Part shown: piece by piece, positions 17,590 through 18,515 of the stretch
How positions within the stretch are numbered: position 1 is the stretch's first letter
Layout: the number at the start of each line of letters is the position of its first letter
Virus record (IMG/VR): IMGVR_UViG_2681813455_000010
Location: 1,928 to 65,927 of that record
Direction: 5' to 3' (one strand)
DNA: 64,000 bases
Source: a virus
Lineage: Duplodnaviria > Heunggongvirae > Uroviricota > Caudoviricetes
The notes under the pieces: generated by a model
What the model saw: only the letters and a program-made list of their open reading frames with translations
Told to the model about the DNA's origin: nothing
Databases searched by the model: none
Program-made: the position numbers and the translations under genes

Positions 17590-18515
17590 AAATTCAGTTT
17601 GTATGAAATATTATCGCATAAAGATACTGATGAGCCAGTAATATAACTAGAAAATATTTTTTGTGGTTCAGCGACCTAGACGTCTGCTACTGGCACAGAG
17701 CAGACCATCGGACTGAACTGAAGGTCCTCTCTGTGCGAGAAACGGAAGTTAGCAATTGTGATACAGACGTGGGGCATTACTCGCTTTACAGTGTGTTAAT
17801 CAATTGGAAACAGGTCAGAATTTATTGGGTGGAATGACACCTTTAAACTTCTTGCGCATCGCAAGGAATATCTCCACCAGACGGTAAGACAGTAGATTGC
17901 GCCACAAGTCCTCAGAATGCCCTTTGCTGGGTTAACCACACGTCGTAATCATCCTTCCAGTGCAGCGGATCAAGATCGTAATGCTCATAGTCACGCGATT
18001 TCAAATACAAGCCCAGTGGTGTTATCCGTGAGCTGGACAGTGCTTCCGGCAACATGACTGAGACAGACAAAAAATCAGTTAGTACAGCATTGACTCAGGT
18101 TGAGCAGGAGTTAAAACAAACTGGGCTGGAGCAGTAGAAGCCTGCAGTGAATTCCCTGAATCAGGCGATTAAGGTGGCTTAAGAGTCCGTGTATGCCATG
18201 TGCCGCGAGATGTCGTGCTATACGTGAAAGTCAGCGATATATATCGTTTTGAAGATGATTTAGGTTACGGGAGTGTCTCTGGGTGATGTATTACTTCATC
18301 GACATCGGCTACGCACGGGTTGCCGCGATGCAGCGGATGGAAGCTGTCTGGGAAAAGAAAGCTCCGCTTGCTAATATTAGTACATCCGATGAAAAATCGT
18401 GTGTGAAAGTTGCAGATTAGTAATATACTAATGAAGAATGGAGATGTATTTTATATAATAAAAACATCTAAGTAGAGCTTTTTATTTTAAATCCTTCATT
18501 ATTACTGGAGATTTT

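Follow-up and report, generated by a model that had tools for sequence, protein, structure and literature searches.

Recombination and gene decay as the probable origin of the DNA upstream of a putative anti-phage dCTP deaminase gene in an Escherichia coli prophage

Introduction

AvcID systems pair a deoxycytidylate deaminase toxin, AvcD, with AvcI, a small RNA that inhibits it. All four tested systems have the RNA gene directly 5′ of the deaminase gene, in the same orientation and often overlapping a small open reading frame (ORF). An AvcI would be far more abundant than the mRNA of the deaminase and would act on the enzyme post-translationally. Validated AvcI RNAs are encoded immediately 5′ of the deaminase and co-transcribed with it, have a minimum length of 152–174 nt, and lack a shared sequence (bioRxiv 10.1101/2021.03.31.437871). 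The AvcI of Vibrio parahaemolyticus is about 280 nt long, and those of Proteus mirabilis and enterotoxigenic E. coli (ETEC) act on their cognate enzyme only (Hsueh et al.; bioRxiv 10.1101/2021.03.31.437871; PMC10511110). The dCTP deaminase of E. coli AW1.7/U09 described by Tal et al. is a single gene that was cloned with its promoter region (bioRxiv 10.1101/2021.04.26.441389). Here, we analyze the non-coding stretch that precedes a putative anti-phage dCTP deaminase gene (18516–20294, + strand) in 64,000 nt of a Caudoviricetes genome (IMG/VR record IMGVR_UViG_2681813455_000010, positions 1,928 to 65,927). This whole stretch of DNA is called the window, all coordinates refer to it unless a comparison locus is named, and labels of the form L0xx denote comparison loci.

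A preliminary description of the locus had recorded about 0.9 kb with no long ORF between a divergent gene and the deaminase gene, as well as short fragments reading like broken genes, and had proposed this gap as the site of a regulatory or antitoxin RNA, or of a promoter complex. Comparison across genomes makes it probable that the gap is a mosaic of recombination and decay and holds no regulatory-RNA gene. Two cargo cassettes of a mobile-element variable region abut at a 72-bp inverted-repeat junction (17679–17751). To the right of the junction lie about 260 nt of DNA that matches only close copies, followed by a truncated mobX gene that extends until about 40 nt before the deaminase ATG.

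Results

Composition of the gap and the mobX pseudogene

No ORF on either strand of 17590–18515 exceeds 58 amino acids (aa), which bears out the earlier description of its coding content. The left flanking gene (16450–17571, − strand) encodes 373 aa from its RefSeq start and, counted from that start, the non-coding stretch spans 17572–18515, i.e., 944 nt. Its GC content is 42–48%, compared with 30–36% in either flanking gene. The chromosome of E. coli SF-468 matches the window at 100% identity and has no annotation in the gap. Cross-genome comparison separates the gap into pieces of distinct histories.

The piece nearest to the deaminase gene is a 5′-truncated mobX pseudogene (18015–18476, + strand), which retains residues 44 to the end and is of ColE10-replicon/MOBQ mobilisable plasmid origin. 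On such plasmids, mobX lies downstream of mobA and is annotated as ‘mobilization protein MobX’ or ‘tRNA modification GTPase’. A tblastn search with MobX of the Yersinia plasmid pB-8086-2 gave an E-value of 2e-50 and 71–73% aa identity over residues 44–185 of 196. The match spans 18015–18438 and contains four in-frame stops and one frameshift; for this interval, the impression of broken genes proved correct. At the DNA level, the identity to mobX of small ColE10-replicon/MOBQ plasmids (248 plasmid records) is 68–79%, and nucleotide alignment extends the homology over 18439–18476, to the former stop codon at about 18476. The colinear similarity to MobX together with the disabling lesions identifies a pseudogene, and sister lineages carry lesions that arose independently. 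The 5′ truncation, a TAG at 18261, and a 2-nt deletion at about 18274 are common to the compared lineages. Three nonsense codons (18135, 18180, and 18225) are private to the window lineage, a 1-nt deletion is private to L014, and a 1-nt and a 4-nt deletion are private to L034. Indels have been tolerated in the remnant at 18069, 18263, 18285, and 18436.

The mobX remnant decays at a near-neutral rate. In the three pairs formed by three lineages about 5% apart (window, L014, and L034), its pairwise divergence is 5.5–8.2%, compared with 4.9–9.3% at the third codon positions of the deaminase gene.

Between the junction and the mobX remnant lies a fragment of the deaminase cassette (17752–18014) that matches only close copies. 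No DNA match beyond these was found in phages, plasmids, or E. coli, and neither tblastn against plasmids nor NCBIfam gave a match. A protein search with the stitched peptide of this fragment returned only three unannotated short ORFs, whose C-termini differ, and the retained length of the fragment varies among L013, L034, and L014. At L013 (5871–6329), positions 17731–18185 of the window recur at 93% identity between IS91-family (Y2 transposase) genes. This stretch comprises a fragment of the 17752–18014 type and the first 170 nt of the mobX remnant, with no deaminase gene; the truncated-mobX junction therefore circulates independently.

Contexts and borders of the deaminase module

In the window, the deaminase module belongs to a lambdoid prophage and lies among the cargo bounded by the tail-fibre genes on one side and the prophage end on the other. 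Further copies lie in a P2-like prophage between gene A and the portal gene (L014/L015, 3742–6123), on a Rep3 plasmid beside a restriction-modification system (L022, 3875–5776; 90% identical), and, as the fourth context, on a contig that carries PT-HINT toxin genes (L034, 119–2640). Across these at least four mobile contexts, the nucleotide identity of the module is 87–94%, and the length of the mobX scar differs in each. The four left borders of the module are at 17680 (Rb-50 and L017), 17788 (L034), 17933 (the P2-like L014), and 18387 (L022). The DNA from 17680 rightward travels with the deaminase gene in three sources that lack the 373-aa gene, namely strains Rb-50 and Z247 and a contig from a gut metagenome. 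Positions 18387–18515 (129 nt) are the only upstream DNA common to the four contexts with at least 90% protein identity.

More distant relatives also have short spacers. The gene for a 71%-identical deaminase in L023–L028 (4001–5788) has been inserted on its own between a DUF3748 gene and glyS; it stands behind a core gene with a 60-nt leader, and the identical protein occurs on 15 contigs. In other relatives, the upstream spacers measure 200 nt (59% identity) and 139 and 113 nt (about 52%). In this clade, the deaminase gene seems to move and to function as a small cassette of one gene, preceded by no more than about 130 nt of its upstream DNA.

Several observations weigh against decay of a mosaic without an RNA gene. 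L022 has a 756-nt unrelated non-coding stretch upstream of its deaminase gene. Several more distant family members have ORF-free leaders of 316–508 nt, which are compatible with AvcI-like genes in parts of the deaminase family. In one lineage pair, the mobX remnant diverges by 5.8%, compared with 11.2% at four-fold sites (P = 0.027, uncorrected), and the 60-nt bin at 18353–18412 has a single variable site. Lastly, an ancestral plasmid carrying both mobX and the deaminase gene is absent from PLSDB, in which the best match reached 49%.

The deaminase and its leader

The deaminase gene encodes a protein of 592 aa, a fusion of a P-loop kinase and a dCMP deaminase. As in AvcID toxins, both the N-terminal P-loop kinase-like domain and the C-terminal dCMP/cytidine deaminase domain are present. 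The protein matches the PADLOC dCTPase model (5e-127) and Pfam dCMP_cyt_deam_1 (2.5e-12), and its motifs, Walker A (GRTGSGCST), HAEE, and PCELC, are intact. It shares 38% identity with the experimentally tested enzyme of E. coli AW1.7 and 24% with ETEC AvcD. The alignment to NCBIfam NF041025 (anti-phage dCTP deaminase) is full-length with an E-value of 9.7e-111, but its score of 370.7 bits falls under the curated cut-off of 400. A member of this family would deplete dCTP during infection and protect its host against phage. For this reason, RefSeq names the protein ‘hypothetical protein’ in every genome, and an annotation threshold would thus hide a probable defence gene. The gene is AT-rich and presumably foreign to E. 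coli. Between the window and L014, its synonymous divergence (dS) is 0.14 and its nonsynonymous divergence (dN) is 0.024.

The probable promoter and leader region is 18387–18515 (+ strand). It contains TATAAT at 18454–18459, which consists of former mobX codons, a native leader of about 40 nt (18477–18515), which is the sole non-mobX DNA right before the ATG, and GGAG at 18507–18510. As read by eye, TATAAT is probably the −10 hexamer of the deaminase gene and GGAG its ribosome-binding site (RBS). A scan for strict consensus promoters and terminators gave no + strand match near the deaminase gene, TATAAT at 18454 included. Of the regulatory DNA envisaged in the preliminary description, a promoter is plausible within the last 130 nt or so, whereas a divergent promoter complex joining the two flanking genes finds no support. 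These genes belong to different modules that meet at the junction repeat, and each is found without the other. A palindrome at 18416–18432, ATTAGTAATATACTAAT, was considered as an operator and rejected, as it is broken in L014, L034, and L022.

These features suggest the following history. On a small mobilisable plasmid of the ColE10/MOBQ type, the deaminase gene would once have followed an intact mobX at a distance of about 40 nt. Copies with varying lengths of mobX would then have reached a lambdoid prophage, the hotspot of a P2-like prophage, a Rep3 plasmid, and the fourth context. Only the last 130 nt or so would matter for the deaminase, with a −10 element drawn from mobX codons, the leader, and GGAG, and the remainder of the gap would be neutral filler. 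A mobX-adjacent plasmid slot as the source is supported by a Citrobacter plasmid that carries a PDC-M38/AbiL-like pair at this position.

In that plasmid, pRHBSTW-00398_4 (L005, 3522–5368), genes for an ATPase and a DUF3226 protein directly follow an intact mobX. PADLOC recognises the pair as its candidate system PDC-M38 (2e-139 and 7e-79), and AbiL-like models match it as well. The slot behind mobX on small mobilisable plasmids may be a site for defence cargo.

Other explanations of the gap

A scan of the gap and related loci against Rfam gave nothing relevant, and the control, the ETEC AvcID plasmid, likewise gave no AvcI match. Fold z-scores in sliding windows were low only at the junction palindrome and at 18300–18499, there on both strands; the validated ETEC AvcI scored about 0. 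RNAalifold on three or four copies found compensatory changes in 0 of 44 and 1 of 86 predicted pairs. Blastn of the gap against the AvcI region of ETEC p58 and the upstream regions of eleven other homologues gave no match. These negative results of the Rfam, fold z-score, and similarity searches are uninformative, because validated AvcI RNAs share no sequence and because the ETEC AvcI was itself missed by Rfam and has a fold score of about 0.

The comparative evidence is more telling for the proposal of an AvcI-like type III antitoxin RNA on the + strand, derived from former mobX DNA within 150–300 nt 5′ of the deaminase gene. Such an RNA would be co-transcribed with the gene and would keep the enzyme inactive until a phage halts host transcription. 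The protein does have the architecture of AvcD, a 45-aa ORF (18283–18420) lies where the tested systems often overlap a small ORF, 18285–18405 is the least variable part of the gap, and the lack of similarity to AvcI says little since AvcI sequences are not conserved. However, the candidate region descends from a protein-coding gene and borders directly on the deaminase leader, its divergence is like that of third codon positions, it accepts four indels, and no promoter-like + strand site lies upstream of 18400. The 90%-identical L022 does not have the region upstream of 18387, and the 60–200-nt spacers of relatives are mostly shorter than a minimal AvcI. Moreover, the enzyme shares only 24% identity with ETEC AvcD, the one validated partner compared, and AvcI RNAs are often cognate-specific. 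In place of a dedicated, retained RNA gene of at least 150–170 nt, as AvcID would have 5′ of the deaminase, the locus has decaying mobX DNA, of which the contexts share 129 nt including the leader. The antitoxin RNA of the preliminary description thus finds no support here: the 150–300 nt 5′ of the ATG are former mobX and absent from L022, and the spacers measure 60 nt in the relative at 71% identity, 200 nt in the one at 59%, and 139 and 113 nt in those at about 52%. We regard an AvcI-like RNA as unlikely.

Two further explanations are less probable still. In one, a small protein that partners the deaminase would be encoded in the gap, by the 45-aa + strand ORF or by a 52-aa ORF on the − strand (17912–18070). 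Both ORFs are open in the window, gene calls elsewhere include homologues of the − strand ORF with 68 and 79 aa, and the 45-aa ORF stays open, though shortened, in L014. Nevertheless, the 45-aa ORF is the C-terminal fragment of MobX; a 4-nt deletion breaks it in L034, L014 has only a truncated form, and L022 does not have it. In the − strand ORF, about 8 nucleotide differences produce 7 amino-acid changes, and its homologues end in three different C-termini. This ORF is considered spurious, since its amino-acid changes are almost as numerous as its nucleotide changes and its C-termini vary. No family match was found for either ORF. The other explanation, that the gap is a shared divergent control region co-regulating the 373-aa gene and the deaminase as one defence system, agrees with their divergent arrangement in the SF-468 lineage. 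Yet the deaminase cassette comes with no 373-aa gene in Rb-50 and Z247, the reverse holds for AZ147 and 13 other genomes, and the promoter-proximal regions of the two genes are 900 nt apart with the cassette junction between them. We give hardly any credence to either, and a mosaic of recombination and decay remains the preferred origin of the gap.

The junction repeat

The junction repeat is the least ordinary object in the interval. Positions 17679–17751 form a 72-bp imperfect palindrome of two arms of 27–33 bp, and the fold z-score for 17600–17749 is about −3.4. The + arm (17679–17709, + strand; ACGTCTGCTACTGGCACAGAGCAGACC; score of 29.8 with the nhmmer arm model) closes the 373-aa-gene cassette, and the − arm (17719–17751, − strand) opens the deaminase cassette. 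A copy of the + arm, ATATCCGTTTCTGGCACATAGCAGTC (20895–20920, + strand), closes the latter. Homology breaks at the arm: it ends at 17705 in AZ147 and begins at 17680–17683 in Rb-50, L017, and L006. In L006, which carries alternative cargo, homology resumes at 20900, by the closing arm, and in strain 2020N21-110 the equivalent arms enclose another gene. Positions 17680–17705 were considered as a prophage att core; this was dropped, because the same motif occurs at many internal cargo borders.

The arm consensus, AACGTCCGCTCCTGGCACAGAGCGGAC, was derived from 105 unique arms and has two spacer variants. The family occurs in 1440 of 5426 complete E. coli genomes (27%), with up to six copies each, and is never annotated. 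It is also present in 882 plasmid records (Klebsiella, Enterobacter, Pantoea, Citrobacter, Salmonella, and others), in 53 phage records, and in 80 of 120 IMG/VR contigs, a set selected by a degenerate 15-mer of the arm itself. The exact 17-mer of the window arm has no match in IMG/VR, and the 27-bp family is not in Rfam. Phage lambda has one arm (27317–27360; L049 8318–8361), between ea59 and attP. Phage P2 has two (L050 3424–3451 and 5018–5045), which flank the Z/fun cargo between genes G and FI. Further sites of the family are L048 9000–9072 and L032 4999–5072. Whether single or joined into the 72-bp palindrome, the arms bracket cargo genes in the variable regions of prophages, in genomic islands, and on plasmids.

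The orientation of the arms depends on their distance. When arms of a pair are 0.6–5.8 kb apart (median 1.6 kb), their AAC ends point toward the cargo in 50 of 60 pairs; when they are at most 40 bp apart, they face outward in 25 of 26. These counts come from partly related contigs and are thus not independent. Since close pairs face outward and distant pairs face the cargo, the full palindrome is read as the joint of two adjacent cassettes. The 8-bp internal dyad of the arms shows no compensatory covariation among the 105 unique arms (Fisher P = 0.8 and 0.34), and a hairpin function was rejected on this ground. Conservation of the arm sequence without covariation of the dyad points to sequence recognition or shared ancestry instead of a hairpin.

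It is possible, if doubtful, that the 72-bp element and the single arms belong to a family of protein-recognised recombination sites that moves promoter-containing cargo cassettes, a family with no known recombinase. Cassettes would then be inserted, swapped, or inverted among the lambdoid and P2-like prophages, islands, and plasmids of Enterobacterales, in an integron-like or dif-module-like exchange that would include the deaminase cassette. Alternatively, the arms could be conserved flanks that guide homologous exchange. Nilsson et al. 2004 (Mol Biol Evol 21:1) may have described border repeats in P2-like phages and reportedly suggested that the variable regions of P2 recombine site-specifically at their borders.

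The flanking sequences

The 373-aa gene is the final gene of the neighboring cargo module, and it had no match in the protein-family searches run. It most likely starts at its second ATG (17571), which is preceded at 5 nt by GGGAG. The longer, 379-aa reading with a start at 17589 results from taking the first in-frame ATG. Its 5′ region (17572–17678, − strand) contains this GGGAG as RBS and an extended −10-like element, TGCGATAAT, at 17618–17610, which would be its promoter. Positions 17599–17705 are 92% identical beside homologues of the gene in 14 other E. coli, and 17572–17705 as a whole travels with these homologues at that identity. In the integrative island of AZ147, a homologue is accompanied by the same upstream 107 nt with no deaminase gene; together with AZ147, 13 others are deaminase-free and have both the gene and its upstream region.

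Further left, positions 14835–15875 encode a DUF4365 protein matching the PADLOC ‘Aga_REase-PNTD1-PNTD2’ models (8.5e-22), and 16124–16414 encode a C-terminal piece of a tyrosine integrase beside it. With this protein and the integrase fragment, the DNA left of the junction, too, has the appearance of defence cargo. At the other end, about 600 nt (20306–20894) separate the end of the shared deaminase module (about 20305) from the closing arm. They contain a 45-aa − strand ORF (20525–20662) and a GAGGGTG/CACCCTC hairpin (about 20484–20515).

Discussion

A long ORF-free stretch beside an AvcD-type deaminase gene should not be taken as an antitoxin-RNA locus unless comparative or expression evidence is at hand. 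In the present case, the mobX scar is a molecular fossil, which would record how a probable defence gene passed from a small mobilisable plasmid into prophage hotspots of at least two kinds. With the junction repeat and its orientation rule, cargo cassettes in the variable regions of prophages and islands could be delimited by sequence. If the repeat were a true recombination site, it would provide a mechanism for the reloading of hotspots.

Relative to mobX of plasmids, the remnant has the same orientation and a colinear gene end and retains residues 44–196; however, it lacks the first 43 codons and mobA, has acquired stops and frameshifts, and occupies a chromosomal prophage site. The junction resembles the attC sites of integron cassette arrays in being a 72-bp imperfect palindrome with AAC/GTT outer ends between promoter-containing cargo units. 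Unlike attC, the arms are conserved in sequence rather than in structure, and the single arms on either side of a cargo are inverted relative to each other instead of being direct repeats. Neither an RYYYAAC/GTTRRRY consensus in the arms nor an integron integrase in the loci read was found. An attC identity was accordingly rejected, given the conserved sequence and the absence of both an R/Y core and IntI.

The dCTP deaminase of Tal et al. (AW1.7/U09) is 38% identical to the window protein over the full length, has the same motifs, and is likewise carried in islands and prophages. Unlike that enzyme, the window protein falls under the NF041025 cut-off, and its role in defence is putative. With AvcID (DcdV/DifV), the locus shares the two-domain enzyme architecture, the location in a mobile element, and a non-coding stretch 5′ of the gene. 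It differs in that the enzyme is only 24% identical to ETEC AvcD, the 5′ DNA is decaying mobX instead of a dedicated, retained RNA gene, and close relatives have spacers of 60–200 nt. The ETEC AvcID system is carried by a small mobilisable plasmid, which recalls the plasmid ancestry proposed for the window deaminase.

The description of hotspots in P2-like and lambdoid prophages by Rousset et al. 2022 (PMC9122126) mentions neither the family of 27-bp arms nor the rule of their orientation. As in those hotspots, the cargo of the window lies between the tail-fibre genes and the prophage end. The deaminase module also occupies the gene A–portal region of P2-like prophages, and the arm repeats border the Z/fun cargo of P2.
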